DNA of 63,192 nt, the filler included, from Trichomonas gallinae (lineage: Eukaryota), in assembly GCA_008369845.1 (NCBI GenBank). It is 4 parts of 4 records of this genome, joined end to end, with 100 filler letters (N's around TTAATTAATTAA, not from the genome) between each part and the next. Parts side by side here need not be neighbours in the genome. Positions count along the whole stretch, not along the records: positions 36,121 to 55,923 come from MRSU01000077.1; 3 more parts are not named here. The stretch is one strand, 5' to 3'. The notes under the pieces were generated by a model. It ran no database searches. It saw nothing but the letters and a program-made list of their open reading frames with translations, and was not told the origin of the DNA. This document shows, piece after piece, positions 10,979-60,578 of the stretch (within the stretch, counting starts at the first letter, position 1; each line of letters starts with the position of its first letter). Both the position numbers and the translations under genes were made by a program.

Positions 10979-11366
10979 TGTGATCTAACGATAAAAACCG
11001 GCGGCGCCACAATTTCAAATAAACTTCCAAAAAAATCAATTTGCAAAATGATTCGTGAAATAAACGAAGAATTTAACATAAAACACGAATATCAACTTAT
11101 TTCTCTGTTTTCCTTTTTATTGAGGAATTCGATGAGCCAATTTTAGTTTTAACATTTGTTTCCGCTATATAACTGTATAATATAGCTATTTATAGTAAAT
11201 TTATTCACTTTGACCTTTCCCCGCCAAAAAGTTAAAGTGACCTCACTTTCGGGTATCAGGAAGTGAGATAACAAATGATTATCAAATGCGGCAAACAACC
11301 CAAATATTTATGGATATTAAAAAAAGATAATTTTTTTATTTCAGATTTTCCGACAGTTGTGTCCTC

Positions 11367-12041
11367 TTACACATCAATTATACTGTACTTGCGGTCTTTG
11401 AACTCAAGTTTGACGTGAAATTGCTCATCCGTCTCAATTCCAATTTCTTCGATTAAATCTTTTGGCTTTTTATCCATGCCATCTTGATCACAAAGAGTGT
11501 TCAATATATCCATGCAAATATTTCTCCTCTTTTTCCATTGTTCACATCTCGTGAAGAAATCTTTATTAATTTGAGCAATATCATCAGGATTGATGCCTTG
11601 AGCTGCCGAAATTAGCTGATCTCTTAGAACTGCAGCATTTTGAACGTCAATTTCAATTTGTGTTCGATAATTTCTTAAATCATCTAAAACGCGAGTTGAA
11701 GCTAATTGATCCCTTCTAGCTCTTAATTCATCCCTTTTTGTTTTAAGAGCAATAATTCTCTCTTGTAATTCATCATTATGGCTGTCCATCTCAATTAGTT
11801 GTTCTTTAGAAGCAACTTCCTTTCCCTCTTGTTTGGCAAAGTATAGTTTTGTAGATTTACCGCATAATTTGCAAGTAATGAGACCATTTTCTGTTAATTG
11901 ATCAAGAGATTTTTGAATTACAGTTTTTGAAAATTCTCCGTGCAATTCATCAACAAGGTTAGTTGCACTATACGGCCTGTTCCTTTCAGTGAGGAATTGA
12001 AGTATCTGATTGGTTGGGTTTGCTTTAGATTTTGGAGGCAT
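11367..12041 (-). CDS. HOP2: Meiotic homologous-pairing protein Hop2 (TBPIP/PSMC3IP family)
   Basis: ILQFLTERNRPYSATNL...SKTVIQKSLDQL...GKSTKLYFAKQ winged helix, a coiled coil, WKKRRNICMDI and a GIETDE C-terminus. Confidence 0.9.
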   Translation of the reverse strand: MPPKSKANPTNQILQFLTERNRPYSATNLVDELHGEFSKTVIQKSLDQLTENGLITCKLCGKSTKLYFAKQEGKEVASKEQLIEMDSHNDELQERIIALKTKRDELRARRDQLASTRVLDDLRNYRTQIEIDVQNAAVLRDQLISAAQGINPDDIAQINKDFFTRCEQWKKRRNICMDILNTLCDQDGMDKKPKDLIEEIGIETDEQFHVKLEFKDRKYSIIDV

Positions 12042-34700: not shown

Positions 34701-35287
34701 TCACCGACGATCAGACGCTCGCCAGAGTAGCATAGAGTGAAGACAGGGACTTGGAGGTGATGAGTGTAGAACTCCTGCGCGTTTTCAGAGTTGCGAACAG
34801 AAACTGTGCCATTGTGAAGACCAATGGCGAAAGATTTGCCATCAGGGGCCCAAGCACCGCACAAAATCTTCACCTGGACGTCAACTGGTGTAACTTGTTG
34901 AATATTTTCATGCCAAATCGAAAATTCTGTGCCTGCGCAAGCAAGTAAATGCGGCGAGACTGGGCTGAATGCGAGTGTTGATGCAGCGCCAGTGATAACG
35001 AATCTCACGCGGCCTTTATTTGTCTTTGAATCCCATACGATCGCTGTATCATCGCAACCGGCTGTTGCAAAGAGTGGATCGTGGTGAGAAACTGCGATTG
35101 CATAGATTGGTCGTTTGTGTTTCTTGACATCGCTGATTAATGTTCCATCTTTCAATGAATAAACGAGAAGATGTCCGCCATTCGCGACAAGGAGTTCCTT
35201 GCAGTCGGGCTTAATTGCGCAAGCGTACACAGGTGATGGATTTCCATGATAGGTTTCCTGGAGCTTCCATTTTTCAGTCACTTGCAT
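31730..35287 (-). CDS. IFT122: Intraflagellar transport protein IFT122 (WD40 + TPR-like + C-terminal zinc-binding)
   Basis: 1185 aa. N-terminal WD40 (KPDCKELLVA, HKRPIYAIA), GLEDGQVIQIFVDHRF, WNELADSALR, WNEALALAKMHP and C-terminal CxxC pairs (CRGC...CPIC). Confidence 0.88.
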   Translation of the reverse strand: MQVTEKWKLQETYHGNPSPVYACAIKPDCKELLVANGGHLLVYSLKDGTLISDVKKHKRPIYAIAVSHHDPLFATAGCDDTAIVWDSKTNKGRVRFVITGAASTLAFSPVSPHLLACAGTEFSIWHENIQQVTPVDVQVKILCGAWAPDGKSFAIGLHNGTVSVRNSENAQEFYTHHLQVPVFTLCYSGERLIVGDWNNRLTIHKPRESVLHATVDIPAQPSSIINFQSNIIVADIAGGVILYNDDGQQLSVITEVKDWIWSISVSPEGYMSLGLDNGTISVLSLGLRPIYSIYRNSFAFRTELTKIRIQMLGTDLFEDVEFVKPVQKISITDIHASILFHDEVSVYTYDEDHGSINLEKKTRFEMAPGARQFYDFTNTFVFIFEKTVKILNGNGSFIREFNFSAPISASCIASTIPSMEGVLIGLEDGQVIQIFVDHRFSHQAFKHDNAIRNISISQMNTKVAVVDDKHRCCVYSLMTGKLLFIEEGVDTACWNELSDDILAMSDGENLYVKAFEMQRIKSTMTGELVRFSGLTVFTIHNNQLYQFDIPLSTAVKNLARNNDFENAYQVAVFGSTEEQWNELADSALRQREIGVAVKAAAHAWNIQLMHFIEMIATLMKDAKFTQDHLSAEVDAWTNNFDSAARTWRNLGENERSVQMYFDLRQFDKLPQFLSGDRMKKFALQQAKLFEDMNELELAAKLYIVGGEALKAVTILNEANMINELAAVAKTIDHTETAALQYAAEALIQHDMPTQATDILAQLDDVSSLAKVRVILKDWNEALALAKMHPALLPEVFLPFARYLFEDDQYFESLVSFFIAGRVDEALKSLNMLLENALVMNKYDDVAFFLYGRSLGMASIAADAAEAQSIVESGLELARCYSAFGKLREDTTSPFTVRERGSSFYLSRYVVAYMNSIRRGEFKAKYLHKISDDLLTGISYPEALFSLLNESDNVGEYRLMRWCAEQLSLFVVPPAVQEAVDLAILRTAGMNDDDDGECCERCGSRLFSSGDGPLLWCSECKCPIVFSCHSFKVLPLVPVTISGVEVKDAKTLIAQDPPIDGNVMDISEVIDPSRAVDGDAKPVLNTDALKNIDPSAFVTCEWKENSKVPCSFMLNPPLESIHICRGCNSMFSDVDFERTFLENGACPICKTPLDSEAEGEFADTYESYSDLLKQLRDFSSAVPIEF

Positions 35288-38361: not shown

Positions 38362-41300
38362 ATGAATGATTTTCTTCCGATTCCAAAACTATTTCAAGCA
38401 ATATTAGAACTCAATTGCAACATTGGGAATGATGTTAACCAACTTCCTCCTATGGTTAAAGATTCAAATCCACCATTGAGCTTCCCTTTACTAAGTCAAG
38501 ATAATATTTCAAAAATTGTACGGAAATTAGAAGAAAACATCAAAATAGTTAGTATATTTAAGGATATACCATGGAATTATCCATTTGATATATCTCTAGC
38601 TACAAAAATCATGGCAAGTTTTCCAATTATGTTAAATATTCCGAAATATACATCAACTCTTATATTAAATACATATATATCACTTATTATATCCGAAAAT
38701 AACTCAGAACATGTCTCTCTCATATTCGAATTATTAAAAAATATAATTTCTCAGCCAAATTCAACGATATCACTCGAAATAAGGCATATTGCTGCATCAG
38801 CTTTTGCTTCATTATACAATTTTTCAGGGATAATCATCAGATCTCCTGATATTTCACAATATATAACAAATTTAAGAACATTTATCGTAGATAATTCCGA
38901 TTTACCAAAGTCAGCGTTTTCTTTGCTAACTCCTATAGCGCAGGATGTTCTTGATAAGAAGCAAATGTTTGAAACTTTTATTAAAAATGCGGAAGTTATT
39001 TTTACTAAGTGCAAAAATCGATTTACTATAGAAGATATTGATGGATTCATCAGGCTTATCTGTGATCCACTAGTAAAACCAACTGTCCCTGCAATACATA
39101 TTTTAGCCATTATTGTTCAAATGACAGGAAGAGTTTCAATCCTCCCATTCGTCGTTTCTCTCCCTTATGCTATGAAAGACATGATTACTTCAAAGAAAAG
39201 AAAGTGCATTATCGATAATACAGAAAATTTAAAGTTATTCAAGTTAGAATTCAACAATAATACTCAACACAAGCACAAAGGTTCGCTATTAGAAGGAATC
39301 CCTGAATTTGGCAATTTACCAGATTTTTCATTAGATAAAATCGAAGAATTCATTGATCCAGACACAGCAGAGTTTTGCCAAGCTACTGCTGAGCTTTTAG
39401 CTACTGATTCACAATTTCCAGACACTTTCATTGAAACAGTCATAATGCAAATCAAAAATAATGCAGAAGCTCCATTTTTGCTTGATTTGATTGCAGCATA
39501 TGTATTCTCACTCAAACTAACACAAATGAAAAAGTATTTCGTTCCAATAGTTGACTGTTTCTTTACATCAGTTTTATTTGATCCAAAAATGACAATTTAC
39601 AGCCCACTTCCACATTTTAAAGCAGTAAATGCAATTAGACAGGAGGTTGCTATGCTCATGATCTCAAATGAATTCGAAAAAGTTAAATTAATTTTAGATT
39701 TTCTGTTCAGCTTTCCATTGGCGTTCAGCGAGTTAATTTTCCGCATTATTCAGCTTCCTGATTACATGTTTAACAACATTTTCATCACAGCTGATTATTA
39801 CTGCGAATTGTTTAAAAAATCAATGAATATCGAGTTAGATCAAGAGAACAAGTTCCCTGTTACTCAACTGAGGCTAGCATTGCTATATTTATATGACAAA
39901 TTCATTAATGTTACATATTATGCTGATTATTTATTTGAACAAATGCAATTCATTGAAACGATCTTTAAATACGCTGCAAATAGCAAATTGACAAAGTTTT
40001 TACTCACAAATATCGCAAAATACATCACCGGGCCAACGACACTGCAAAGCAGCGAATTAATTCACGAAATTAAAGCAAACATTCACAAAGTCCTTGAAAA
40101 ACCATTAACAACACCAAAATTGCAAGAATATTACTTAGAATTCCTTAAACTCCTGAATTCTATTATAATGGTCAAAAAATTCCACATTAAAAATTTCCTG
40201 AAGACAATCACAAGAATTGTAGAGAAAACAGCTGATTTACCGAATGCTGCTTTATCACAACAAATTATATCTGAAACTCTTTCGATTATGATAACAATCT
40301 CAGAAAATGCGGAATTTTCAAGAAGTGAGTTAACAAAACTGAAGCTTGGTATCAGAAGATTGTATGGAGATGAACCTCCATTTGCAATAATGCACAAAAT
40401 ATTAGAAATTGCAAAAGGAACAAAAATTAACGTAACTTCAGAGCCATTTATTGTCATACGTCCAAGTTCAATCAATCTTTTATTGGAAGTTTTCGAAAGA
40501 TCGAAACATATTTATATTATTCTTAAATACTTGAAAAATCTGGTTTTATCAACACCAGCGAATAAGAATATGTTCCACAAAGGAACAACAGATATAAAAT
40601 TAATCGATATGATCAAAGAAATGAAATCATTAAAATGTGTTGACCTTGCTTTTGAAATTCTCAAGTTAATTTCTAGTGAAATTTGCAGTGGAATAGTTGT
40701 TAATAGGTTTATCAGTCTTTTCTGGCCAATTGAAGAAAAGTATAGATTAAATTATCAACCGCAAGCGATAAACTTCATTACAATGATGATAGACGAGTTC
40801 CACAACGTACCTGAGATAGGATACACACTGTCAACAGAGCCAATGCAGGTGCAATGCCTGCAGAGCGAAATGCTGAGTAATTGCACACTTCTTGCTTGGT
40901 TCTTCGTCAACAACACAGATAATGACATCGTTTTATTCTCCATGGCCGATGAAATCGGTACAACAGTGAGCATCAACATCATCAACCAGTGCGTCGCAGG
41001 CTCAGTGACTTACAACGGCACAATGAGAGTTGGACCGAGCCAAATCGTCTGCCCAGTAGGTTATTGGTTCCCTATGCTTGTCAGTTTTATCGGGGACCCG
41101 AAAAACGACAAATACGAAATTTCTTTTTACCTTGATGAAAACAACAAGAAGGTTCAGACATTCAGTATGCCTCCTTTCAAGCAGGGCAGGGCACTCATTC
41201 AGTTTTCGTACGAAAAGAACCCACAAACGTTCAATGGAATGGTTGGACCTTTCGGGATTTTCAACGCGTTAGTAAATCCGACAGAACTGCTCGACTTGAA

Positions 41301-44300
41301 TGTCAAACAAGTTCCAGCGCGTGATGACTTAATCATCTGGCTCAACCCTGTCAAAGAAGGCGACAGAGTTGGAATCAAAGTTTACCCTGAATCGAAGCAA
41401 TACAGGATTTTCCATGACCCGCCTCTATGTCAGAGCACCGACAGTTTTCTCACGATTTTATCGACTCGTATTGGAATCTCTGTTTTACTCCCACTCTATG
41501 GAGAACTAGACATGCCTTTCTGTGATGGCTCTAAGTTCGAAAACGGCCCATGCATGATAACTTTCTTGCTAGGAAAAATTTTACCAACATGCAAAACTTC
41601 TCAGATCGATTACATGAAAAATGAAGGCTTTTCTATAATAGTTCACCTCCTTGAACAGGCATCGCCATCAAATAGAACATACGAACTCTACGCTGGCTTC
41701 TATAATATTCTCCATCTTCTTCCTGGCGATGTTATTGTCAGTTTTCTTTCAACACTTATCCTTAACTTTGAGTTATGGATGGATTCGCACGATTTTGCTA
41801 AGATTACTTATCACTGGGCGAATGTTGTTTTCACTGGATACCCAGTAATATGCAATGAGCTGTTCCCAATAAGGAGGATATTGAACTGGCTGAGATCGAA
41901 CATCTTCTATCAGCCAGTTGAAGGCGGAATTATTGCACCGAAACTACCGCCGCATTCACAAGAAGTAATTTCCGAAATAAGGAGAAATATTTTTGCAGCA
42001 GCAGAAGCTTTGAAGAATTACGTTACAACAGATGACATAAATTTAGTTATCAACCAAATAATAACAAATGGAGAAAAAATGCAAATCTTGGATCTTTTGG
42101 AATTTTTGACATGCATAATTTGCGACAACAATGAAATTGATTACTCGCATTTGCCGCTTTTAAGCACTTTAGTCGCTACACTTGACTACGACATAATCAT
42201 TGCACTGCTCAAAGCGATCAAGTCTATCAATACTGTCGTTAAGTCTTTCATTTTAGATGAGCAGCTGGGAGTAATTATTGCGAACTTCCCAACATGTTTG
42301 ATTACTGATGAATTCTTCAACAAACTTTACACTGTTTGTGTGAGTGAGCCTTCTTTCTTCCCACTACTCGCATTCTTCACCTGTGCTGATGTGAATTACT
42401 GCATGACTGTTTACTCCAAGTTTCCGCCTTCAAGAGATTTGCTTGCAAAGAAGTTTTCATCCGTTTACACTTGCTACGCTTATTGCATTTATTCGCAAGA
42501 AATTCGCGCTGACATTCTCGAGTTTATTATTAAATGCGGACCAAGTATTTGGCCAAATATCTACTACATGCTTGACTTCGTGTCGAGATCATTGGGTTTA
42601 AACACTATTACAATCAGCCGCGATTTCGTCAACAAGATCGCAAATCTTTTTGAACCATCTCCAGCACAAACATCTGTCTCTGAAGCAGACGCTTTCCTTG
42701 AAATAATTAGGTCCTTCCTATTCACTAAGCCATGCAATTACGTTGCCCCAACAATGAAGACACTCGGCAAGCTATGCCAGTCAACTTACGGTGACCAGAT
42801 AGAGATGATGCCTGATCAAATTGATTCGGCGACGCTTTCATCACTTCACCTTTCCAATGATGCTGACGAAGAAGAAGAAGAGAAATCTGAGTTAACGCCA
42901 AGTCCTAATGTTCCACCACCTCCACCCCCACCGCCTCAATCTTCTTCACCTCCGCCAGACGGGCTTCCTGAAGTTCCTCCTCCACCTCAAGCAACGATGA
43001 TGCTGAGCCAGATCATCAGGAAGCAGTTATTGGATTCTAGGATCATTTTGAAGAGGCCTCCTAGTAGAAAAGTTTCACTTTTATCTCCAAACATTTTGTT
43101 TGACGCTTGCAGGAATATCATGAGAATCAAATCATCTGTCGCAAACAGCAAAACGTTTGATTCACCTTACAAACTCTTGATAAGCAAATTCAAACAAGAA
43201 ATGGTTCAAGAAAACGTCTACAACAAGATACACACGAAGTTACTGGCGACAATAACTAAGAGAAGATTCGGATTAATGTGCGACAGCGTTGGCCACTGGA
43301 TGGAAGTCAAACTTGCCGAACTTGCCCTCGACGTTTTCTCCTACTTCATGCTCAGACATCACAGATCAACAGCAGCATTGATTTGCTCCTATTTGCTCAA
43401 GACATCATCAGAGAAACCGTACGAGATCATGAAACTCCCAGTAATGAACATCAAACTCCTCCCAGAGCATTGCATATTCAATAGTTTTGCGACTAAGTTC
43501 AACAGAGAGATTTTGCCAGCAGCTAAGATGCCGTACAGCGAACTAATGAAGAATGCTGATCTCGCTTTATCAATGATTGCACGTGGCGATGCTTGCTCGA
43601 ACTACGCAGCAAGTTATGTAGAATACATTGGAATTATGACGAGAAAAGCTCTGTTTGCCAAAGACATAACACATGATCCTATTTTGAACACCATGATAGA
43701 AGGATCCCAAGAGCTGCAAGTGAGAAACATATCAATGCAACACTACAACAGAAAGAAATGGCGCAAATTCTGGAGCAGGCAGACAATCAAAGGATATCCA
43801 TGGTACAACTCAGTTAAAATCGACACTGAGCAGATCCAGAAGAAGCGTTTGATGATCAACTGCGCATTCAACATTCCAATGAAAGTTAAAACTGTTTACG
43901 CGAGACCAGCGCAGCAGAAAAACAACGTGTTCTATGATAGAGGCGATGATACCGACGAAAACATTTCACAAGAGACTCAGATATCAGTGAAGAAGATGCC
44001 AACAGTACAAGAAGAGTTCACTTGCGAGATGGTGACAATCAACGCAACAATTAACATCACAGTTGAAGTTTGCTCTGATTGTCTGATGCTCAAGAGAAAG
44101 CTCGATCCAACTGTGAGAGTCATCAAATACAAGAATATTATTTATGTCATGCTGAAGCCAGCTGGAAAGAACTACAACTACATTGAGATATATCTTAATT
44201 CCGGCTCCAGCATTTTACTGAACATGAATGGAAAAAAGACGGCTTTGGATATGATTTATTTGTTCAATTCCAAGGATTTGCCGTCACTTAGAATGCCAGT

Positions 44301-45981
44301 TCAGTTGACGAGCACAATAGACTACTTTGTATCCACCGAATACACGAAGCTGTGGGTTACAGGCAGAGTTTCTAACTTCGAATATTTGATGGCGTTGAAC
44401 CAGTTTTCTGGCAGAACATTTCAATCTTTAAGTCAGTATCCAGTCATGCCTTGGCTACTGAACAACTACGACGACGCTGAGATCGAGTTCACACCAGATT
44501 TCAATCTAACGAAATCCAAGTATCTCAGGGATCTTTCGAAGCCAATCGGAACAATAAATCCAATGAGACTGAAGGTTTTGGCGAGACGCGCAAAAGATAC
44601 GAAATGGCTATACGAGAAATGGAACTCAACTCCACAAAGAGTTTGCCAATATCTTGCAAGAATACAACCATTTGGTTCTATGGCCAAGGTGAAGCCTTCA
44701 TCAATACAAGAAGAATACAAGACGTCAACAGAAACAATGAGCAACTACGAAGAATTAATTCCAGAATTCTTCTTCATGCCAGAAGCCTTCGAAGGCATGA
44801 AACTGCCAGTCTGGGCTAAGAATTCTCCATTCATGTTCGTTTACCTGCACAGGAAGATCTTGGAGAGTGATGCAGTGTCAAGTGAGCTCCACAGATGGAT
44901 TGATTTGATTTTCGGTAATTCAAGAAGTGACCTCAATAAATTCGAGCCTTCTGTCTATGATGGAACTAATCCATCTATAGGCATCGTCCCAACACAGCTT
45001 TTCAAGTCATACCATCCTCCGAGAAAGCTTGCACACAAGAAGCAATTGAAGTATGTTGTCATGAATCCAATATATCCGGATCCAAAATGCATGTGCGTTA
45101 TCAAGAAAGACGCAGAAGAAATCACTGCTCTGTATGTTGATGCTTTAGGCGTTGTCAGATCAGCGAGGCACAACGCAGAGAAGGAATCATCTACTTTGAT
45201 CAATGAGAAGCAGTTCGAGATGCAAGCTGCTGTCGAAAACATGTCAGATAGCATGAACACTATGATTCCGATTTCTCCGAAAAAGATTTTGATAATTGGA
45301 AAGAAGAAGGACAGAGTTTTCTTCATTTCTCTCGATAGCGAGAAATGCAAGGAAACAAAATTCCACTCAAACATCGCCGCTTATGACTTCTCGAACAGTC
45401 TCATGGCGTTCGCATTGACTGATTCCATGATTTCAATCTACAAGCACAGCGAGTCGATGATTTTCTCTGTGCAACTCAGTGCAGGTATCATAGAAACAAT
45501 GACAGTGTCTGCTATTTTCCACATCATCGCTGTAGGAACGCGCGAAGGCGAAATCTACATTGTTTCAATCATATCTAAGAATGTTACGCAAATATTGAGC
45601 CTAGGTTCATTTATCTGCACGAAGCTCGTAATCTCAAGGTGCTGGGGATTCATCGTCGCTTTTTGTGAAGGCGGCGACAACGCGAATCTGTCTGCAAAAG
45701 TCTGCGTTTACACATGCAATGGAGAACTTGTCACTGAGTATCCAATAGACAGAGTTCCAACATGTGTCTGCACTTATTATGACTTGAATGGCTTCGACTA
45801 TGTCGTTTGCTCGAATTCGAATCAGGAGATTTACATGTTTGAGGCTCCTTTCCCCAATAAAATGATAAAGTTATGTGATAAAGTCGGCGACTGTATCAAT
45901 CTTGAGCCATGGGGATCAAGATGCATCCTTGCTACAATAGCAGACGGTTCTATTCACGTAATTCCACTTCCTAATAGTTAA
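38362..45981 (+). CDS. Beige/BEACH domain protein (ConA-like, PH, BEACH, WD40)
   Basis: TKLWVTGRVSNFEYLMALNQFSGRTFQSLSQYPVMPW, RDLSKPIG, ELIPEFF, LPVWA, HRKILESDAVSSELHRWIDLIFG and C-terminal WD40. Confidence 0.93.
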   Translation: MNDFLPIPKLFQAILELNCNIGNDVNQLPPMVKDSNPPLSFPLLSQDNISKIVRKLEENIKIVSIFKDIPWNYPFDISLATKIMASFPIMLNIPKYTSTLILNTYISLIISENNSEHVSLIFELLKNIISQPNSTISLEIRHIAASAFASLYNFSGIIIRSPDISQYITNLRTFIVDNSDLPKSAFSLLTPIAQDVLDKKQMFETFIKNAEVIFTKCKNRFTIEDIDGFIRLICDPLVKPTVPAIHILAIIVQMTGRVSILPFVVSLPYAMKDMITSKKRKCIIDNTENLKLFKLEFNNNTQHKHKGSLLEGIPEFGNLPDFSLDKIEEFIDPDTAEFCQATAELLATDSQFPDTFIETVIMQIKNNAEAPFLLDLIAAYVFSLKLTQMKKYFVPIVDCFFTSVLFDPKMTIYSPLPHFKAVNAIRQEVAMLMISNEFEKVKLILDFLFSFPLAFSELIFRIIQLPDYMFNNIFITADYYCELFKKSMNIELDQENKFPVTQLRLALLYLYDKFINVTYYADYLFEQMQFIETIFKYAANSKLTKFLLTNIAKYITGPTTLQSSELIHEIKANIHKVLEKPLTTPKLQEYYLEFLKLLNSIIMVKKFHIKNFLKTITRIVEKTADLPNAALSQQIISETLSIMITISENAEFSRSELTKLKLGIRRLYGDEPPFAIMHKILEIAKGTKINVTSEPFIVIRPSSINLLLEVFERSKHIYIILKYLKNLVLSTPANKNMFHKGTTDIKLIDMIKEMKSLKCVDLAFEILKLISSEICSGIVVNRFISLFWPIEEKYRLNYQPQAINFITMMIDEFHNVPEIGYTLSTEPMQVQCLQSEMLSNCTLLAWFFVNNTDNDIVLFSMADEIGTTVSINIINQCVAGSVTYNGTMRVGPSQIVCPVGYWFPMLVSFIGDPKNDKYEISFYLDENNKKVQTFSMPPFKQGRALIQFSYEKNPQTFNGMVGPFGIFNALVNPTELLDLNVKQVPARDDLIIWLNPVKEGDRVGIKVYPESKQYRIFHDPPLCQSTDSFLTILSTRIGISVLLPLYGELDMPFCDGSKFENGPCMITFLLGKILPTCKTSQIDYMKNEGFSIIVHLLEQASPSNRTYELYAGFYNILHLLPGDVIVSFLSTLILNFELWMDSHDFAKITYHWANVVFTGYPVICNELFPIRRILNWLRSNIFYQPVEGGIIAPKLPPHSQEVISEIRRNIFAAAEALKNYVTTDDINLVINQIITNGEKMQILDLLEFLTCIICDNNEIDYSHLPLLSTLVATLDYDIIIALLKAIKSINTVVKSFILDEQLGVIIANFPTCLITDEFFNKLYTVCVSEPSFFPLLAFFTCADVNYCMTVYSKFPPSRDLLAKKFSSVYTCYAYCIYSQEIRADILEFIIKCGPSIWPNIYYMLDFVSRSLGLNTITISRDFVNKIANLFEPSPAQTSVSEADAFLEIIRSFLFTKPCNYVAPTMKTLGKLCQSTYGDQIEMMPDQIDSATLSSLHLSNDADEEEEEKSELTPSPNVPPPPPPPPQSSSPPPDGLPEVPPPPQATMMLSQIIRKQLLDSRIILKRPPSRKVSLLSPNILFDACRNIMRIKSSVANSKTFDSPYKLLISKFKQEMVQENVYNKIHTKLLATITKRRFGLMCDSVGHWMEVKLAELALDVFSYFMLRHHRSTAALICSYLLKTSSEKPYEIMKLPVMNIKLLPEHCIFNSFATKFNREILPAAKMPYSELMKNADLALSMIARGDACSNYAASYVEYIGIMTRKALFAKDITHDPILNTMIEGSQELQVRNISMQHYNRKKWRKFWSRQTIKGYPWYNSVKIDTEQIQKKRLMINCAFNIPMKVKTVYARPAQQKNNVFYDRGDDTDENISQETQISVKKMPTVQEEFTCEMVTINATINITVEVCSDCLMLKRKLDPTVRVIKYKNIIYVMLKPAGKNYNYIEIYLNSGSSILLNMNGKKTALDMIYLFNSKDLPSLRMPVQLTSTIDYFVSTEYTKLWVTGRVSNFEYLMALNQFSGRTFQSLSQYPVMPWLLNNYDDAEIEFTPDFNLTKSKYLRDLSKPIGTINPMRLKVLARRAKDTKWLYEKWNSTPQRVCQYLARIQPFGSMAKVKPSSIQEEYKTSTETMSNYEELIPEFFFMPEAFEGMKLPVWAKNSPFMFVYLHRKILESDAVSSELHRWIDLIFGNSRSDLNKFEPSVYDGTNPSIGIVPTQLFKSYHPPRKLAHKKQLKYVVMNPIYPDPKCMCVIKKDAEEITALYVDALGVVRSARHNAEKESSTLINEKQFEMQAAVENMSDSMNTMIPISPKKILIIGKKKDRVFFISLDSEKCKETKFHSNIAAYDFSNSLMAFALTDSMISIYKHSESMIFSVQLSAGIIETMTVSAIFHIIAVGTREGEIYIVSIISKNVTQILSLGSFICTKLVISRCWGFIVAFCEGGDNANLSAKVCVYTCNGELVTEYPIDRVPTCVCTYYDLNGFDYVVCSNSNQEIYMFEAPFPNKMIKLCDKVGDCINLEPWGSRCILATIADGSIHVIPLPNS

Positions 45982-46283: not shown

Positions 46284-47936
46284 TTAGAAAGAGATTGTGT
46301 TGCTATAGAAATAAACAGATAAAGCTGCAAAAATCACAAGGATTATTAAGAACACAACAAGGAATGAAATAAAGTTGATGTTCTTTGATTTTTGAGCAAC
46401 TTTCTTATATGTATCAAAGCATTCTTTGTTGAAGAGAGTATCGAATTCATAATAATCTTTCTCATCCTTTGTGTGGTTGTTGTACCAGACTTGGGCGAAG
46501 AACTGATTCTTTTCAGCAATTCTTCCGTAGTCCCAAGCATTCGATGGAATGAAGCAATGTGGGCACCAGTGGCCTCCCCTCAAAATTATGTTTGGAGTTG
46601 CTTCGAATTCTCTGCCGCAGTGGCCGCATTTCCATGTAACTTTCTCATACAATGAGTCAACATGCTCGCTAACTAAGCATCCACCACGGAATGCTGCAGC
46701 AGCCTTGAGGTCATCAACAGTCAAAGAATTGAAAGGCTTAGATTCATCATATCCATGGGAAATGATGTATTTCTCTGCATTCTTTATTGATGTTTCGTAG
46801 TGTTTAATTGGGAATTGTGACCATGATGTTTCGAGCTTGTTGAACTCTTCGATTGAGCCGAAAGAAGACTTGATTCTCGCCATGTCATTATTCTTGATCC
46901 ATCCGAGTGTTCCGAAGTTTTTATCATTAGCAATCATCTTCATGAATGGCTTTGCCATGAATGAAACGTTCTTGATAAATCTCGATGCCTTGATCAACTT
47001 GAAAGATAAGTCTGCCTTTGATAACAACTGCTCGAAGTATTCTTCTGTTGGAATGTTCTCTCTGAACTTAAGGTAGTTCTCCAAAACGTCACTGTCTGCG
47101 TAATAATGACCGTGGAAATTCTTTGTCGCGAACCAGTTTGGCTGCGTGATGTCCTTGATTGAGCCAATTCCTGCTGTTCTAAGAATCAAGTCTTCGAACT
47201 CATAGTTTGTCAATCTATAGAACTCACCACTACCAATGTTATAGAACCTTCTCCAGAACTCATCAGGGAGCTCAAAGTCGACGAAGTTTTTCATCAAGCG
47301 TCCGCTGTCTTCAACAGTGCACCACTCTAAAACTCCGTTTAAAGGAACATGATACATGATTGGCTTCATATTGTTCAAGAGTCCAGAATGGAGGATTCCG
47401 CTCTGTCTAAAGACTGCCCAATGCTTGAGGCCGCTCTCAGCGAATACACGCTCAGCGAGAATTTTTGAGAGTCCGTAGTGATCATATAGTGAGACTTTTA
47501 TTGGATCTCCTGTTCTTCCCCAGTGTATTGGGTAATTTCTGTCACCTGTCTCTGCTACACTTCCAATGTATACAACTTTGATGTCGTCTTTGTTCTTTTG
47601 AGCTTTAATTGCATTAACAACATTTTCTGCGCCGTGAACGTTAACATCATATGTTTCTTGAGGCTTATCGTCTGCTATTGGGGAAACCATGCCTCCAATG
47701 TGTAAAACATAATCTGAACCGTTAATGAAATGTAAAACTTCGTCGTAATTGCGCAAATCACCATAAATTGCTTCGATATTATCGTTTTTGCCTATAAACT
47801 TTTGTGCTTTCTTCTTTTCCGATGGATATGGAAGAACTAACATTCTTATTTTGATATCTTTGAGATTGAGTAATTGCTTAATTGTCTCACTGCCCATGAC
47901 ACCTGTGGCACCTGTGACACATACTGTCTTTACCAT
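46284..47936 (-). CDS. Extended SDR / NAD-dependent epimerase-dehydratase (3-beta-hydroxysteroid dehydrogenase-like) with zinc-ribbon and C-terminal TM anchor
   Basis: VTGATGVMG (Rossmann), GSVAETG (Ser), YGLSK (YxxxK), WKCGHC...GHWCPHC and a hydrophobic tail FISFLVVFLIILVIFAALSVYFY. Confidence 0.85.
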   Translation of the reverse strand: MVKTVCVTGATGVMGSETIKQLLNLKDIKIRMLVLPYPSEKKKAQKFIGKNDNIEAIYGDLRNYDEVLHFINGSDYVLHIGGMVSPIADDKPQETYDVNVHGAENVVNAIKAQKNKDDIKVVYIGSVAETGDRNYPIHWGRTGDPIKVSLYDHYGLSKILAERVFAESGLKHWAVFRQSGILHSGLLNNMKPIMYHVPLNGVLEWCTVEDSGRLMKNFVDFELPDEFWRRFYNIGSGEFYRLTNYEFEDLILRTAGIGSIKDITQPNWFATKNFHGHYYADSDVLENYLKFRENIPTEEYFEQLLSKADLSFKLIKASRFIKNVSFMAKPFMKMIANDKNFGTLGWIKNNDMARIKSSFGSIEEFNKLETSWSQFPIKHYETSIKNAEKYIISHGYDESKPFNSLTVDDLKAAAAFRGGCLVSEHVDSLYEKVTWKCGHCGREFEATPNIILRGGHWCPHCFIPSNAWDYGRIAEKNQFFAQVWYNNHTKDEKDYYEFDTLFNKECFDTYKKVAQKSKNINFISFLVVFLIILVIFAALSVYFYSNTISF

Positions 47937-47948
47937 TTTACTTCTAGT

Positions 47949-47953
47949 AATGA
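47949..47953 (-). promoter_or_regulatory. Initiator (Inr, TCATT) of the SDR gene
   Basis: Minus strand TTTCATTACTAGAAGTAAA-ATG. Confidence 0.6.
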
Positions 47954-48402
47954 AATTGGATTTGATATGTCAAAAATTTTTCCTAAAAATTTTAATCCAA
48001 AATTTTATATAACTGATCCAAGTTTTTGTCATTGAAAACTGGTTTTTAGCATTATTATGTCATACATACACATATTTATTCATTTATCCGTAATTTTATC
48101 AAAATTCGAAAATTTTTTTTTCTCAAAAACCTCGTGAAATTTCTTAATTTCGGATCATATTGTGATAAAATGTAAAATTATGCATATTCGAATCATCAAA
48201 CACCAAATTAAATAATCATTTTCCTCTATTTTAATAAATCTTATTTTAAAGTTATCTAATAAGTTTCATAACTTGATCCAATAGACAACATTATGCTATA
48301 CTAGCTATACTATATATGACTCATATATACTTTTATCATATGTCGATTATTTTCTGAGATATAACTAAAATAATGATGTGGGAAATTATTAAACAAATAA
48401 TT

Positions 48403-49173
48403 TTAATAAACAAAAGGAATGATTCTCTTCTTCTTGAGGACAACGCTGCCGAATTCAGCTATGTATTTCTCGTAGATCTTGTGTGCGCGAGGAACGAGAT
48501 TCGCAATTGTCCACCAGACAAAAACAAGGCCTGATAATGACTGCGTCATAATTGAAAAACCAGTCCACTCGACAATTTCACCGAAGTAGTTTGCGGACGT
48601 CACGAATCTGTAGAAGCCCTTATTAGGAAGGTAATGCTTGGTGTCTCCTGGCTTTCTTAAGTTCCTGATGACATGGTCACTGTGGATGTTGATGGAGATG
48701 CCTGCAACGAACAAGGCTATGCCTAACAGGAAATGTGTCGAGAAAATTATATCGTTAGAATAGTCCTTCTCGAAAAAGATGCAGCATCCTTGCATGTAAC
48801 CATTGCAGGTATTGAAAACCATGCCCATTACCATCACTGAAAGGGGCATAACAGATCTGCCTTTAATGAGTAGTGGGAATATGAAGGATCTTTGGAAATA
48901 ATGCGTTTGGAAAGCTAAAAAGAAAATTGTTGTCATTAAGTTCTTCTTTTCTGAGAAATAGAACATGATACACATGATAATGAACACAGGGCATTCCATT
49001 AATATCCATGCAACTTTATTATTTATTGATGGTCCCCAAGTTTTGCTCGCGAATTTTCCGTATCCGGCTGTAATGAAGTAAAGAGCAATGAATATGGCGA
49101 GGGCAATGGCAGACATCACTGCCATGTACGCGTCAAGAGCATAGCCACTCAAGACAAGTCTGTCGAACTCCAT
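48403..49173 (-). CDS. 3-oxo-5-alpha-steroid 4-dehydrogenase (steroid 5-alpha-reductase, SRD5A family)
   Basis: AGYGKF, AWILMECP, HYFQRS, NGYMQ, INIHSDHVIRNLRKPGD, SANYFGEIVEW, ANLVPRA and KRIIPFVY; multi-pass hydrophobic, 256 aa. Confidence 0.93.
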   Translation of the reverse strand: MEFDRLVLSGYALDAYMAVMSAIALAIFIALYFITAGYGKFASKTWGPSINNKVAWILMECPVFIIMCIMFYFSEKKNLMTTIFFLAFQTHYFQRSFIFPLLIKGRSVMPLSVMVMGMVFNTCNGYMQGCCIFFEKDYSNDIIFSTHFLLGIALFVAGISINIHSDHVIRNLRKPGDTKHYLPNKGFYRFVTSANYFGEIVEWTGFSIMTQSLSGLVFVWWTIANLVPRAHKIYEKYIAEFGSVVLKKKRIIPFVY

Positions 49174-49181
49174 TCTATAAA

Positions 49182-49197
49182 AATGATGCTAAAATGA
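49182..49197 (-). promoter_or_regulatory. Tandem Inr elements (TCATT x2) of the 5-alpha-reductase gene
   Basis: Minus strand TACTCATTTTAGCATCATTTTTATAGA-ATG. Confidence 0.6.
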
Positions 49198-51904: not shown

Positions 51905-51919
51905 CTTGGAAAAAGTCTA

Positions 51920-52024
51920 TTTACATGTCAAAACGATATTATTTACATGACAAATATTACACAATTTTCATTTTTTACATGTCAAATGATAATTACATGC
52001 CAAAATTCCTATCTTTACATGTCA
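51920..52024. promoter_or_regulatory. Cluster of five TTTACATGNCA-type motifs upstream of the ankyrin gene / divergent promoter
   Basis: Copies at 51920, 51942, 51974, 51992 (ATTACATGCCA) and 52014, all in the same orientation. Confidence 0.7.
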
Positions 52025-53760: not shown

Positions 53761-54258
53761 TTATTTCTCAAGATCCGATGAGTTATTATTATCAGTAGAG
53801 GAAAATTCTCCAATTTTGCCAAAACGTCTCTCTAACAATTGCAGTCTGTTTCTAAGCGCATTATCAGATCTGTTATGGAAAAATAACGAAATTTTCCGCC
53901 ACTTCGTTCCTAATTCTTTATATTTCTGCATCAAGAGCATATCTTCTTCCGGTGACCATTGATCATGGCGAAGATTTGGATTTAAGTAATTATTCCATCT
54001 CTCTCTGCATTGGCGAGGATTACGAGTTACCATCATTGATGCAACCTGATTCCAATTTTTGCAGCCGTACATATGAACTAGATAATAGAGTCTATAATCT
54101 TCTTCTTGTGTGAATTTAATCTTCAAAGATGGTTGTTTTGTTTTAGATTCAATCTCGTTTGCTTCAATAAGGCCCTGCAATGGGAGTTTAATATTACTAA
54201 TCTGTTCCGGAACACCCGGGAGTTGGGTTATAGACGGAAGTAAGAATGTAGAAGTCAT
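53761..54258 (-). CDS. R2R3 Myb transcription factor (TvMyb1-like)
   Basis: KFTQEEDYRL...W..VAS.M.TRNPRQCRERWNNYLNP...WSPEEDMLL...GTKWRKIS.FF.NRSDNALRNR. Confidence 0.93.
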   Translation of the reverse strand: MTSTFLLPSITQLPGVPEQISNIKLPLQGLIEANEIESKTKQPSLKIKFTQEEDYRLYYLVHMYGCKNWNQVASMMVTRNPRQCRERWNNYLNPNLRHDQWSPEEDMLLMQKYKELGTKWRKISLFFHNRSDNALRNRLQLLERRFGKIGEFSSTDNNNSSDLEK

Positions 54259-56411: not shown

Positions 56412-59400
56412 TCAGGCATCCATACCTATGTAATCGTTATTAATATAGAGCTTGAACTTGACATCTCTTTGCGGATGATAAACAACGAATGATTCGTTCC
56501 TATCAATAGCTTCATATTCTGTTTGTGTCATCAGTATTTTTCCGGGAGGAACAATGTCGATCATGTCGAATGCTTCCATCAAAGGCTCAGACCACATCTC
56601 AAAAACAGTCTTTGTGATTCCGGATAAATAAGCGAAGCAAGGTCCACCACTCTTGATTACACCACACAATACTTGATTGTACTCGAATGACCTATTGATT
56701 GCTTCAGCGCATTCTTTGATGAAATCAATTAAATCTTGAATAATTTCGCCTGTTGATCTTTCTACCTGGAAGCCAGCAACGAAAACAAAAACTCCATTTA
56801 ATGATCTTATCCTTATAATATCTTTGTATTTCTGAACAATTCTATCCATCAGGGACATAACTATTTCTGTAACATCGCTTTCATTCAGCTGACTTTCATT
56901 GTTCTTCGACTCAAAATGAAGTTTCGTTGTCGCGCATAAAACTGAGCAATTTGATGCCGACAAAACATTCTCCAGGGAGCCGTCAATGAACTTGCTCACA
57001 TATGGAGGAGGGAATAATCTTCTAACAAGCACATTCAAGTTATTCTTTAGCTGGTTCAGTTCATGGCGCATTTCAATGATTTCCGTCATGTTCCGCATCA
57101 ACAGAGCAAAATTAGACAAAATTCCTCGCGTCTTCAGCGGGATCAAAATTGCCGAATACTCGATGTTTGTGGAATCTCTTGTAGTTGCAATGATATTGAA
57201 CGTTCTCTTAGCGATTACACCCATAGGAGTGAACATTGCGCAAACAAAACTGAAGAACTCTTCGTTTGCATTTTCGTCGAAAATTTTTTCTATGACTAAG
57301 CCAACCATTTTTTCTTCAGTGTAGCCGAAATCTGCTGCTGCTTGCTGATTGCAGCCAGAAATGATCAAATCAGTGTTGAAGAATATGATAGGGTCATGCA
57401 TTTGAGAAACAATTGTCTGAGAAAGATCCTTGAAGCTTATGTCTTTCTTGAACTTGATCTGCGGAGTCAAAGCGTTGATCAATACAGACTCTGTTGAGCT
57501 ATACTTGCTGTGCAAGACTAGAACGATGTGTCTTGCGTTGAGGAAAATGTGCTTCGTGTTGTTGACGAATCTGAATGTTATCGCCGAAAAAGCACTGATC
57601 AAAAAACAGGTAAGGAGCCAATATACAAACTCAACAAACCTTGCACTCGACTCTTCTATTTTTATGTTGTTTTCTTTCTGCAAGCGAAGGAAATCTTTGA
57701 CTAATGTTTGTGAGATTGTCAATATCACGTACATTGCACTTTCCACTGTGATATTTTTCGTATCGATAAAAGTATTCCACTCATCTATTAATTGTACAAA
57801 ATCTTGTGAATATTTGTGATCGCTGTGAAGAATAACATGCTGAGGGTAGATACTCTTTCCGTCGTCTTCTCTTGTTAAATTCGCCATCAAAGCATCCATT
57901 TCGAGAAAAAGAGTGGCCATGTGCTCTGCTTTGTCTTGGATCATTACAGCGGTATCAATGAACCTGTCCCTGTAGCCACCAAGTATATAATAAGCCAAGA
58001 AAACAAGGAAATATCTGCAAACGAAAATTAGAAAAGTTGAAGTTAAATAAACAGTTAATCTTCCAGGATCAAACCTTTTCATCAAAATTGGTGCATTTAG
58101 CGCTTGATCGATTATTTCTGTATAATCGGATCTATTGTTTGTGTAGTGCCTATCATCAGCTTCTATTTCTTCCAGCTCTAAAACGCCTTCATTATCAATC
58201 TCGAACTCATTAAAACTCTCTGATCTTTTCGATTTGCTTATCTGCACGTAAAGATTTGATCTGAACTCTTCGATAGTCGTCAGTTCTATTCCTTCCAGTA
58301 CTGCAATGATCTTCTTCATATATCTGTAAACAAGAATAGGAGTAGCAATAATCAGTGCTAAAACAAGGAAAATGTCAATGCACAAAAATATCCACACGTC
58401 GGTCAAACTTGGATAATTTGGCATATTTTGCGCACAATTGTTGTATCTTTCTATAATTGGGAGTAAATGGTTGTGTATTTTTCCAATCTTTTCGTGCACC
58501 TGTCTGAGAATGAGCCAGCCATGTGGATCAGTAGTATATCTCAGGTACTTTATTGACACCATGTCGTAAAATTCATCAACTAATTCTGCAGAACCATTTA
58601 TAATGACTGGCTTGTTGTCTATTGGACATGTGAACTTCTCAATATATTGTTGCACAGTCGTATAAAAGATGTATGGTATTTCAAGTAAAGTTTCCGAACG
58701 ACCAAACAATGTATCATTGAACGAAACGAAAAACAAGTCAATGATGTCCAAACTCAATGAAAGCATGAAAAATGATGGGGAGTGTTCGTTAGCGAAATAT
58801 TTGTAAGGAACGAAAGAGCTCGATTCCACGAACTTCGTCGTCGTAAATATCGGAAATATCAAGCTAATTACCATAATTGCTCCAATGATTTTCACAAATT
58901 GTATTGGATAAACCGGAATAATGTCTAAAGCTTTTTGGCGAGATAGGCTCATTGATATATCAGCGTTGTTAGTTGGAGGCTTTTTGTCGAAATCAAGCGT
59001 GTCTGAAGGCTGTATCTGAATCAATTGATAATTGCTTTTCGATGACTGAGCGGAAATTTTTTCACTCATCAAAAAATTCCCTGAATATTTGGAAATAAAA
59101 TCTCTGTACATATTCAGGATTTCAGTTGACTGCGGGTTCCCTTCTATGGCGTAATTGGCTATCAAGTCAAATCTATGGGCTTGCATTGCGTAATTTATCA
59201 ACGTTGGCATCTTGGATTTCTTGAAATGCGAGTCGCAGATAGAATTCGTGAATGCGTATAATGCAATTTTTGTCATTTGATTTTCTTCATCTAGAAGATT
59301 GGTGACTGTCTCTATATCACCATGATTTATCATCAGTTTGTTCATCTCGAACTGCAATTCAAGCAAAAATGGCCTTGATAGAAATGACAGATTTCTTTTG

Positions 59401-60578
59401 TCTATTTGGAACAACTTTTCTCTGATTCTTCTGGGAATCGTTGAACTCATGTACAAAACTTTTGCGCATTCGAGTGTTAATTCGTCGCTGATGCCTGCAT
59501 CTATTATCGCTATAAGCAATGGAGTGAGCTCTGGGAACTTAATCAGCTTCAAATAATGAATAATTATCGTCAAAACTGTTGGTGAATGATTCGGAATTTG
59601 AACAATGTTGTCTAAATCGAATAAATTGTCTAAGTCATTTTTGAGTGCCCAGCTGTAGAATTTAACGACACCTGCGTAGACTAGCTTGCAGAATATAGTG
59701 CGCCATGCTATAAACAAAAAAATGCCAATGCAGACAAACATAAAATCAGGGAAATGAAAAATATGGTATAATATCGAAACAATAAGTGCTGAGCATATGT
59801 GTCCTACTATTCTGAATGCTCCTATGTTTGAAGAGATCGTAAAATAAGGAAAAGTAAAAAGCCAAATTAAAATTCCAAAATGAACAACAGTGTTGGTTAT
59901 TAGCACGTAAAACAGACCTTTTTTGAATAAAGGAATTACTATCCAACTCTGCTGCAATAAACAGTTGCTAAAATATAATCCAAAATAAAATATGTGATAC
60001 CAGAACGAATGGCAAATACTATCGCGTACTGTAGTAATTCTGTGAAAGATGGTGCCCCTGTATGTGAAATATGTGCACATAATAAATGAACTGATTGCTA
60101 AATATAGACTTACATATGTTACTTCGTGATTTACGCACTTAACTATAACTATTTGTAAGGCTGATGACGAAAAAAATCCTAATATTGGTGAAACTTCTTG
60201 AAGTATGAAACAAATAATCGATGCAGTATGGTGCATGAGCATCTTTTGGTAATGGCAATGATAATATACCAGGAATGCACTAAAAAATATGCCAAATGAA
60301 AATGTAATAAGGGCGATATATTTTGCTCCAATAAATTCCAGTGTAATGAACTGGTAAATAAAATAGCTCCAAAATCGCGAGAACATAGAATCATCGAAAT
60401 GTTTGAGAGTTTCGTGATAAAGGGTGGATTTAAAAAAATATAATATTGGAATAATAAATTCGACTATATTTCGCACTGTAGGATATTTATCTTGTCGCAC
60501 GAAAACCAATCTGTAGAAATTCTCCTTCCTATCCCAGGACTCTAGGTTCTGCCAGATTGGAAAATCGACATTTTTCAT
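56412..60578 (-). CDS. Multi-pass transmembrane adenylyl/guanylyl cyclase-family protein with PAS domain (catalytic residues degenerate)
   Basis: Many TM segments, a PAS domain (DPIIFFNTDLIISGCNQQAAADFGYTEEKMVG), LVRRLFPP and a cyclase-fold tail (GVIKSGGPCFAYLSGITKTVFEMWSE...VPPGKILMT). Confidence 0.8.
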   Translation of the reverse strand: MKNVDFPIWQNLESWDRKENFYRLVFVRQDKYPTVRNIVEFIIPILYFFKSTLYHETLKHFDDSMFSRFWSYFIYQFITLEFIGAKYIALITFSFGIFFSAFLVYYHCHYQKMLMHHTASIICFILQEVSPILGFFSSSALQIVIVKCVNHEVTYVSLYLAISSFIMCTYFTYRGTIFHRITTVRDSICHSFWYHIFYFGLYFSNCLLQQSWIVIPLFKKGLFYVLITNTVVHFGILIWLFTFPYFTISSNIGAFRIVGHICSALIVSILYHIFHFPDFMFVCIGIFLFIAWRTIFCKLVYAGVVKFYSWALKNDLDNLFDLDNIVQIPNHSPTVLTIIIHYLKLIKFPELTPLLIAIIDAGISDELTLECAKVLYMSSTIPRRIREKLFQIDKRNLSFLSRPFLLELQFEMNKLMINHGDIETVTNLLDEENQMTKIALYAFTNSICDSHFKKSKMPTLINYAMQAHRFDLIANYAIEGNPQSTEILNMYRDFISKYSGNFLMSEKISAQSSKSNYQLIQIQPSDTLDFDKKPPTNNADISMSLSRQKALDIIPVYPIQFVKIIGAIMVISLIFPIFTTTKFVESSSFVPYKYFANEHSPSFFMLSLSLDIIDLFFVSFNDTLFGRSETLLEIPYIFYTTVQQYIEKFTCPIDNKPVIINGSAELVDEFYDMVSIKYLRYTTDPHGWLILRQVHEKIGKIHNHLLPIIERYNNCAQNMPNYPSLTDVWIFLCIDIFLVLALIIATPILVYRYMKKIIAVLEGIELTTIEEFRSNLYVQISKSKRSESFNEFEIDNEGVLELEEIEADDRHYTNNRSDYTEIIDQALNAPILMKRFDPGRLTVYLTSTFLIFVCRYFLVFLAYYILGGYRDRFIDTAVMIQDKAEHMATLFLEMDALMANLTREDDGKSIYPQHVILHSDHKYSQDFVQLIDEWNTFIDTKNITVESAMYVILTISQTLVKDFLRLQKENNIKIEESSARFVEFVYWLLTCFLISAFSAITFRFVNNTKHIFLNARHIVLVLHSKYSSTESVLINALTPQIKFKKDISFKDLSQTIVSQMHDPIIFFNTDLIISGCNQQAAADFGYTEEKMVGLVIEKIFDENANEEFFSFVCAMFTPMGVIAKRTFNIIATTRDSTNIEYSAILIPLKTRGILSNFALLMRNMTEIIEMRHELNQLKNNLNVLVRRLFPPPYVSKFIDGSLENVLSASNCSVLCATTKLHFESKNNESQLNESDVTEIVMSLMDRIVQKYKDIIRIRSLNGVFVFVAGFQVERSTGEIIQDLIDFIKECAEAINRSFEYNQVLCGVIKSGGPCFAYLSGITKTVFEMWSEPLMEAFDMIDIVPPGKILMTQTEYEAIDRNESFVVYHPQRDVKFKLYINNDYIGMDA

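Follow-up and report, generated by a model that had tools for sequence, protein, structure and literature searches.

We analysed a stretch of 63,192 nucleotides, filler included, from Trichomonas gallinae (assembly GCA_008369845.1; four parts of four records joined end to end, hereafter the window). The subject of this report is a pair of adjacent genes in the part that comes from MRSU01000077.1, one coding for a predicted steroid 5-alpha-reductase (5AR) and the other for an extended short-chain dehydrogenase/reductase (SDR) related to the bacterial enzyme SpiR, and the sterol pathway that the two may form together. Both genes are intact and lie on the minus strand; as a first-pass annotation of this DNA had described, they have the same orientation and are 466 bp apart (Table 1). 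The pair is flanked by an ankyrin gene on one side and a BEACH gene on the other, and a genome scan with the window SDR gave one locus. The GC content and codon use of both genes fall inside the range of the other 20 window genes examined; they are thus ordinary for the window, and a lateral transfer is not datable from them. The annotation also took an initiator (Inr) motif in front of each gene as a mark of domestication. Such motifs are indeed present upstream of both; since a TCA-type motif lies within 40 bases of the start in 9 of 22 window genes, we regard them as supportive rather than special; both genes do look domesticated.

Table 1. Features of the 5AR/SDR locus (positions count along the whole window)
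Feature	Position	Strand	Basis
5AR, uninterrupted open reading frame of 256 aa, likely a steroid 5-alpha-reductase of SRD5A1/2 type in the Bacteroidales-like subgroup	48403..49173	-	PF02544; PDB and Coprobacter scores; tree
SDR, SpiR-family extended SDR, predicted sterol 3-beta-dehydrogenase / delta5-4 isomerase / 3-keto reductase, 550 aa, uninterrupted open reading frame	46284..47936	-	Identity to the SpiR stand-in P0274; trees
SDR Cys4 metal site (C437, C440, C458, C461), equivalent to SpiR C443/446/464/467	46554..46628	-	Pairwise mapping; PF14311 E 2.9e-5; PMC13079761
SDR predicted C-terminal membrane anchor, residues 523-541	46314..46370	-	Hydropathy; long C-terminal helix in model; alignment
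Inr-like TCATT, 17 bases upstream of SDR start	47949..47953	-	Motif inspection
Inr-like TCATT in two copies, at 13 and at 24 bases upstream of 5AR start	49182..49197	-	Motif inspection
AT-rich spacer, 466 bp, found also in a related trichomonad (run X1)	47937..48402		Sequence; X1 contig

The reductase matches PF02544 (E 8e-39), and its residues E60, Y92, R95, N162, D166, R173, N195, E199, R229 and Y237 occupy the places of E57, Y91, R94, N160, D164, R171, N193, E197, R227 and Y235 in human SRD5A2. All of these have catalytic or NADPH-related roles in the human enzyme (PMC11301207; for this and the other papers cited, our statements refer to the parts of each source that were used), except that the role of R94 is a label carried over from the first-pass annotation. 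The catalytic and NADPH motifs which that annotation had reported are confirmed. Two further places differ, G56 being replaced by M59 and H231 by I233. The protein scored 168.6 bits with PDB 7c83 and 140 bits with human SRD5A2 (7bw1), as against 40 bits with the TECR-type ART-1, and is thus nearer to SRD5A1/2 than to TECR; no SRD5A3 structure was among the matches. Although the predicted reaction is of the type carried out by human SRD5A1/2, the score rises from the 140 bits of SRD5A2 to 325 bits with a Coprobacter protein, and the named matches beyond trichomonads were Bacteroidales (Coprobacter, Paludibacteraceae, Caccoplasma). Identity is 61-65% to three copies in T. vaginalis G3 and 56-59% to the bacterial isoallo-cluster loci considered below. 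By family, residues and scores, the window reductase is likely to be of the SRD5A1/2 type, and 5-alpha reduction of 3-oxo-delta4 steroids is its predicted activity. No SDR domain was found in the longer 5AR matches P0463, P0593, P0517 and P0525, in a search for fusions confined to the near length range. One of them, P0463, is a 573-aa protein from one ENA contig in which 5AR is joined to a PCMD carbohydrate-metabolism domain, either as a real fusion or as a read-through artefact.

The SDR has the glycine motif (G9/G12/G15) and the triad S126, Y154 and K158, again as first annotated. Its best matches after trichomonads are proteins of 509-521 aa from Clostridia, so the earlier impression that both proteins resemble bacterial homologs is borne out: apart from trichomonads, the nearest relatives of each are gut-bacterial. 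SpiR of Eubacterium coprostanoligenes, described in 2026, is a cholesterol 3-beta-dehydrogenase/isomerase of 520 aa with Y155/K159 and C443/446/464/467; it oxidises and isomerises cholesterol, reportedly its preferred substrate, and pregnenolone, and it converts dihydroprogesterone, in the 5-alpha as well as the 5-beta form, into 3-beta-alcohols, the 5-alpha form giving isopregnanolone (PMC13079761). As a stand-in for the published protein we used P0274 of E. coprostanoligenes, which, compared by eye with the 400 N-terminal residues given in print, differs from them at only 2 places. BLASTP aligned SDR residues 3-503 with residues 4-509 of this protein in 510 columns, of which 51.6% are identical, at a score of 542 bits; the SpiR paper set a cut-off of 500 bits with DIAMOND, a comparison in which program and target differ slightly. 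In this alignment S126, Y154 and K158 face T127 (T126 in the paper's numbering), Y155 and K159, and a serine at the first place of the triad is common among bacterial homologs. All four cysteines of the SDR are in register with those of the SpiR Cys4 domain. The six T. vaginalis G3 copies are 61-71% identical to the window protein. The SDR is thus a full-length SpiR homolog, for which an NAD(H)-dependent sterol 3-beta activity is predicted.

The trichomonad protein also carries a C-terminal hydrophobic helix (mean hydropathy 3.18) that is absent from the bacterial homologs examined; like the four cysteines, it does not figure in the first-pass annotation. Most Trichomonas SDRs have gained this anchor, and many of those of Tritrichomonas and of deeper branches have a hydrophobic N-terminal extension; these additions suggest that the SDR was re-targeted to membranes or to the secretory route in the eukaryote. 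An AlphaFold model from a 16-row alignment reached a mean pLDDT of 62 and was poor in the substrate-binding part, and we drew no substrate claim from it. The survey in the SpiR paper covered GTDB only and reported Acutalibacteraceae, and its text and seven of its supplements contain no mention of Trichomonas (PMC13079761). Our matches indicate a SpiR-like family wider than the 500-bit set, with homologs reaching outside Acutalibacteraceae. Such homologs lie at 9989-11482 of locus L120 in Parabacteroides distasonis (47%), at 5983-7413 of L122 in Novosphingobium ES2-1, amid oxidoreductase and TonB genes (42%), and at 4986-6554 of L123 in M. riyadhense, adjoining P450 and ferredoxin genes (33%).

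We asked from where each gene came. The SDR trees contained 88, 54 and 24 rows taken from about 170, and the 5AR trees 55, 74 and 38 rows, the sets having been reduced manually or on the basis of identity; for rows without a taxon name, the label parabasalid-like is based on tree position and N-terminal features. The parabasalid-like SDRs (Trichomonas, T. foetus, T. musculus and others) form one group (100/100) inside a set (95/96) with SpiR and Oscillospirales, and a quick version of a mixture-model tree agrees. An approximately unbiased (AU) test rejected their grouping with P. distasonis, the sole Bacteroidales homolog compared (p 1.2e-5). A single group (100/97) is also formed by the parabasalid-like 5ARs (Trichomonas, T. 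musculus and others), and every other named member of the 100/100 set around it is from Bacteroidales. Judging from these trees, each gene entered the parabasalids once, ahead of the divergence of Trichomonas from Tritrichomonas, and two different bacterial lineages are involved, with a clostridial SpiR-type SDR and a Bacteroidales-type 5AR. For the SDR, the trees make the direction from bacteria to parabasalid reasonably clear. Lateral exchange has been known for both T. vaginalis families since 2013: the SDR (TN239) was classed as a bacteria-to-eukaryote transfer and labelled UDP-glucose 4-epimerase (EC 5.1.3.2), and 5AR (tree EB002) was read as a likely transfer from a eukaryote to Bacteroides (PMC4053834). 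The same families are at issue here, and both counts give six SDR paralogues; in the parts of that study covered, the SDR donor is "Bacteria" and neither a pairing nor a sterol pathway is proposed.

The bacterial relatives of the two genes occur in different surroundings. The Bacteroidales cluster for isoallolithocholic acid consists of 5AR, a 5-beta-reductase and a 3-beta-hydroxysteroid dehydrogenase, and the 5AR of B. dorei reduces 3-oxo-delta4-lithocholic acid to the 5-alpha product (bioRxiv 10.1101/2021.01.08.425963). Of 563 metagenome loci for our 5AR we considered the best 80 (21 distinct sequences, four groups at 90%), 53 of these 80 having 2.1 kb on both sides. At the 80 loci a flavin reductase follows 5AR in 70/80 and then a classical SDR of 283 aa in 61/80, the same order as in the isoallolithocholic acid cluster, from which we equate this SDR with Bacdor_03089. 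A homolog of the window SDR was present at 0/80. The trichomonad 5AR thus belongs to the same subgroup as the cluster enzyme, and 3-beta,5-alpha products are predicted in both cases; it differs in having no flavin 5-beta-reductase beside it or elsewhere within the window and in being paired with an extended SpiR-type SDR. The first-pass annotation had likened the latter to the 3-beta-hydroxysteroid dehydrogenase of this cluster, a view that we abandon, given 23% identity over 176 aa (E 0.013) between the window SDR and the cluster's classical SDR (PF00106). Upstream of 5AR in L002-L081 there are usually three large co-oriented genes. The three genes before the Bacteroides cluster are presumably aconitase, isocitrate dehydrogenase and citrate synthase, which they resemble.

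In E. coprostanoligenes, SpiR and the 5-beta-reductase SpiE lead to coprostanol, and a homolog 57% identical to SpiR does likewise (bioRxiv 10.64898/2026.10.06.757028). SDR homologs were found in 50/251 genomes of the family of a clostridial genome (G001) and in 4/301 of a phylum sample. A SpiE-like gene, searched for with a query carrying D77/R79/S118/Y138, is present in 49/50 of the SDR-bearing genomes, which suggests that the bacterial SpiR family works with a delta4-ene reductase; by the listed coordinates, it is directly adjacent to the SDR gene in five and one gene apart in one. At the clostridial locus L098, a SpiE-like gene with these four residues (479-1498, minus strand) overlaps the end of a spiR-like gene (1495-3027, minus strand). 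The window contains no SpiE-like match. The window 5AR gave no match in 401 genomes of the family and 301 of the order around G001 (E 1e-10, a query run without positive control). A PF02544 family search, positive in B. thetaiotaomicron, gave weak matches in 5/49 SDR-bearing genomes (E 5e-10 to 1e-5), none adjoining the SDR; for the one that was scanned, DUF1295 is the best description. Nor was 5AR found within 10 kb of the SDR homolog of P. distasonis. Two database proteins, P0012 (a Bacteroidales-type 5AR) and P0186 (a Eubacterium-type SpiR), have longest contigs of 2507 bases each, just enough for both genes, by chance or as a bacterial pair.

Among parabasalids, linkage of the two genes is supported by the one run listed for this region, a bird metagenome (X1), the contigs of which are about 94% alike to the window region with the same gene order. 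One X1 contig covers the SDR and most of the spacer, up to 48430, and a second meets it in a 28-base overlap at 48403-48430, inside the 5AR end; as the bridging threshold was 31 bases, this overlap supports the gene order through two contigs and not through a single bridging one. The run also holds extra diverged contigs on both genes (window 46780-47620 and 48640-49142), from which we infer further copies or a second trichomonad in the sample. In addition, two 5AR/SDR pairs occur on contigs of equal size, P0006/P0142 (3820 bases) and P0017/P0625 (3883 bases), each from a single Logan contig. Neither pair belongs to the Trichomonas branch in either tree, and between the pairs the proteins are only 61% and 68% alike. 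When the count is restricted to contigs with room for both genes (14 x 27), 0.08 equal-size matches are expected by chance (P ~0.003). An old or repeated linkage of 5AR and SDR in two distant relatives is therefore probable.

We propose, with a probability of roughly 0.55, that the pair is a two-enzyme sterol-reduction unit which would convert cholesterol to cholestanol, and that its genes, a SpiR-type one from clostridia and a 5AR of Bacteroidales type, were brought together in parabasalids. The activities, the substrate and the sequential action are those expected from the homologs. The SDR would turn cholesterol into cholestenone, 5AR would reduce the latter to 5-alpha-cholestanone, and the SDR would act again to give cholestanol, so that one NADPH would be consumed overall while NAD cycles. 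The C-terminal helix would keep the SDR at the membrane in which both the reductase and the sterol are located. This two-enzyme design resembles the SpiR and SpiE route, in which SpiR also acts first and last with a delta4-ene reductase in between and the genes are sometimes adjacent and co-oriented. However, SpiE is a soluble 5-beta SDR, whereas the trichomonad partner is predicted to be a membrane SRD5A-type enzyme, that is a delta4-ene reductase of opposite stereochemistry, and for this reason the product would be cholestanol and not coprostanol. A 5-alpha stanol is flat and fits membranes, unlike coprostanol; cholestanol would therefore suit a eukaryote that takes up host sterol and perhaps meets bacterial cholestenone. 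The gain for an anaerobic sterol scavenger would be a flat, membrane-usable 3-beta-stanol, obtained also from the 3-oxo-delta4 sterols of gut bacteria. Further reactions would be expected, from pregnenolone or progesterone to isopregnanolone and from 3-oxo-delta4 bile acids to isoallo acids. Indeed, 3-beta,5-alpha-reduced steroids are a plausible output, as the first-pass annotation had proposed, and we keep the part of its idea in which hormones and 3-oxo-delta4 bile acids are plausible further substrates.

Several observations weigh against this proposal. In the SDR, the loop after the second strand reads R37-K38-S39 where SpiR has L35-P36-Y37, which suggests that cofactor or activity may have shifted, and distant SpiR-like homologs exist in P. 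distasonis (47%), Sphingomonadaceae (~41%) and Mycobacterium (33%). The linkage is not general: by accession number and contig size, the T. vaginalis copies found (three 5AR, six SDR) are not neighbours, one SDR there lying on a contig that matches the 5AR contigs in size and yet separated from the closest 5AR by more than 5,000 accession numbers; the copies found in T. musculus sit on different contigs, and an 87%-identical 5AR (P0004) on a 14-kb contig has no matching SDR among the 120 matches listed. Counted over all 33 x 45 (1,485) parabasalid-like pairs, 0.29 equal-size matches are expected (P ~0.03), and the 122 x 120 listed pairs gave three exact size matches for 0.87 expected; one of the three is too short for both genes, so chance matches do occur. 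As for the trees, the AU test rejects neither an SDR position outside the SpiR and Oscillospirales set (p 0.16) nor a 5AR position as sister to the bacteria-like rows instead of nested in them (p 0.40). The two genes might be accidental neighbours, brought together by rearrangement and working separately, and the SDR could have come to use a different substrate. In T. vaginalis and T. musculus both families have several dispersed copies, a Foldseek search with the SDR model returned only generic extended SDRs (sugar-nucleotide and plant enzymes at 13-21% identity), and the 2013 label was that of an epimerase (PMC4053834). We consider this distinctly improbable, since the SDR is 52% identical to SpiR over its full length as compared with about 20% to epimerases, chance adjacency would be of the order of 1 in 1000 (a post hoc hand estimate from 18 copy pairs and some 30,000 genes), and two further probable pairs exist in distant lineages. 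Alternatively, the same chemistry and the same two donors could serve host hormones or bile acids, with isopregnanolone, 3-beta-androstanediol or isoallolithocholic acid as products that alter host signalling or bacterial competitors. In favour of this, SpiR acts on pregnenolone and dihydroprogesterone (PMC13079761), the Bacteroidales 5AR acts on a bile acid and isoallolithocholic acid induces regulatory T cells (10.1101/2021.01.08.425963), and the hydrophobic, signal-peptide-like N-terminal extensions of many SDRs from Tritrichomonas and the deep branches could point to a role beyond the cytosol. We nevertheless find it unlikely as the main function: SpiR is reported to prefer cholesterol, the flavin 5-beta-reductase that feeds the Bacteroidales isoallo route was not found within the window, and the genes, being shared with gut Tritrichomonas, predate any urogenital niche. 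The urogenital-parasite setting of the first-pass annotation falls for the same reason, and the organism is not T. vaginalis but a Trichomonas relative, likely associated with birds, as IBP39 (see below), the identities of both proteins to the T. vaginalis copies and run X1 indicate.

Other scenarios concern the origin of the pair. The annotation saw a retained operon fragment, with a single transfer of both genes out of a bacterial genome where they lay side by side. Each gene did enter parabasalids once, with overlapping lineages in both trees, and the linkage is probably old; an SDR homolog exists in a Bacteroidales species, P. distasonis, and the unexplained 2507-base match of P0012 and P0186 leaves just enough room for both. 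As far as tested, however, the nearest lineages differ, the AU test separates the parabasalid SDRs from that of P. distasonis, the latter has no 5AR nearby, the 80 bacterial 5AR loci lack this SDR and the 401 family and 301 order genomes lack 5AR, and we therefore hold a common transfer to be very unlikely. Different donor lineages and bacterial homologs that are not neighbours are outcomes which the annotation itself had named as refuting its model. Compatible with the proposed chemistry would be a scheme in which 5AR is an old eukaryotic gene passed from parabasalids to Bacteroidales, the SDR alone being a bacterial gift. This was the reading of tree EB002 (PMC4053834), and the AU test allows the bacteria-like rows as one clade. 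On the other hand, this clade appears in 0% of 200 bootstrap trees, the parabasalid rows lie inside a fully supported set with Bacteroidales as its other named members, although the rows outside parabasalids that force the nesting carry no taxon names, and 5AR is part of a three-gene cluster across the bacterial loci seen. We regard such a reverse transfer as rather improbable. The claim of lateral acquisition is reasonably well supported for the SDR, and for 5AR its direction is contested.

The sterol-reduction unit proposed above differs from what is known in several respects. Its SDR shares with SpiR a core of about 510 residues, a Ser/Thr-Tyr-Lys triad and a C-terminal Cys4 domain, and departs from it in its eukaryotic host, the added membrane tail, the changed cofactor loop and the multiple copies in T. 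vaginalis. Human SRD5A1/2 and HSD3B catalyse the same types of reaction as those predicted for the pair. Unlike HSD3B, the window SDR belongs to the bacterial SpiR family. We found no literature linking trichomonads to SpiR, 5AR function or cholestanol formation, in a search that did not extend to older work on steroid conversion by trichomonads, and the word "steroid" is absent from the main text, as far as used, of a comparative trichomonad genome preprint (10.1101/2024.12.22.629724). Through this assignment, the six T. vaginalis copies of a family labelled "hypothetical" or sugar epimerase acquire a specific predicted function that can be tested, and SpiR, so far described only in bacteria, is carried over to eukaryotes. 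As SpiR and SpiE have already been co-expressed in E. coli (10.64898/2026.10.06.757028), co-expression of the pair would be a direct test.

We speculate further, and with more doubt than confidence, that a clostridial SpiR and a 5AR from Bacteroidales were combined in an early parabasalid into a linked two-gene pathway absent from sampled bacteria, with a 5-alpha step in place of the 5-beta one, and that trichomonads of gut and mucosa (the mouse species Tritrichomonas musculus, T. foetus, T. vaginalis and bird Trichomonas) may be unrecognised producers of cholestanol, isopregnanolone and isoallo bile acids that induce regulatory T cells. If the pair works as predicted, trichomonads would remodel cholesterol besides scavenging it. 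Protists that are common in the gut of laboratory mice would then contribute to the faecal stanols, the neurosteroid isomers and perhaps the isoallo bile acids that are at present attributed to bacteria. It would also be unusual for a cluster to have been assembled inside a protist, as a linked pathway, out of two bacterial lineages.

The rest of the window holds ordinary eukaryotic genes at 11367-12041, 31730-35287, 38362-45981, 53761-54258 and 56412-60578 (Hop2-like, IFT122, BEACH, two-repeat Myb and PAS-domain protein). A region at 51918-52012 is AT-rich, with many loose ends and a high summed depth in run X1, and is likely a dispersed repeat or a low-complexity element. A gene at 9950-10978 (minus strand) codes for IBP39, the trichomonad initiator-binding protein; its N-domain is identical to that of the solved IBP39 structure, which we take to be the T. 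vaginalis protein, at 109/126 positions (~87%, hand count of the alignment), and its C-domain is visibly more diverged.

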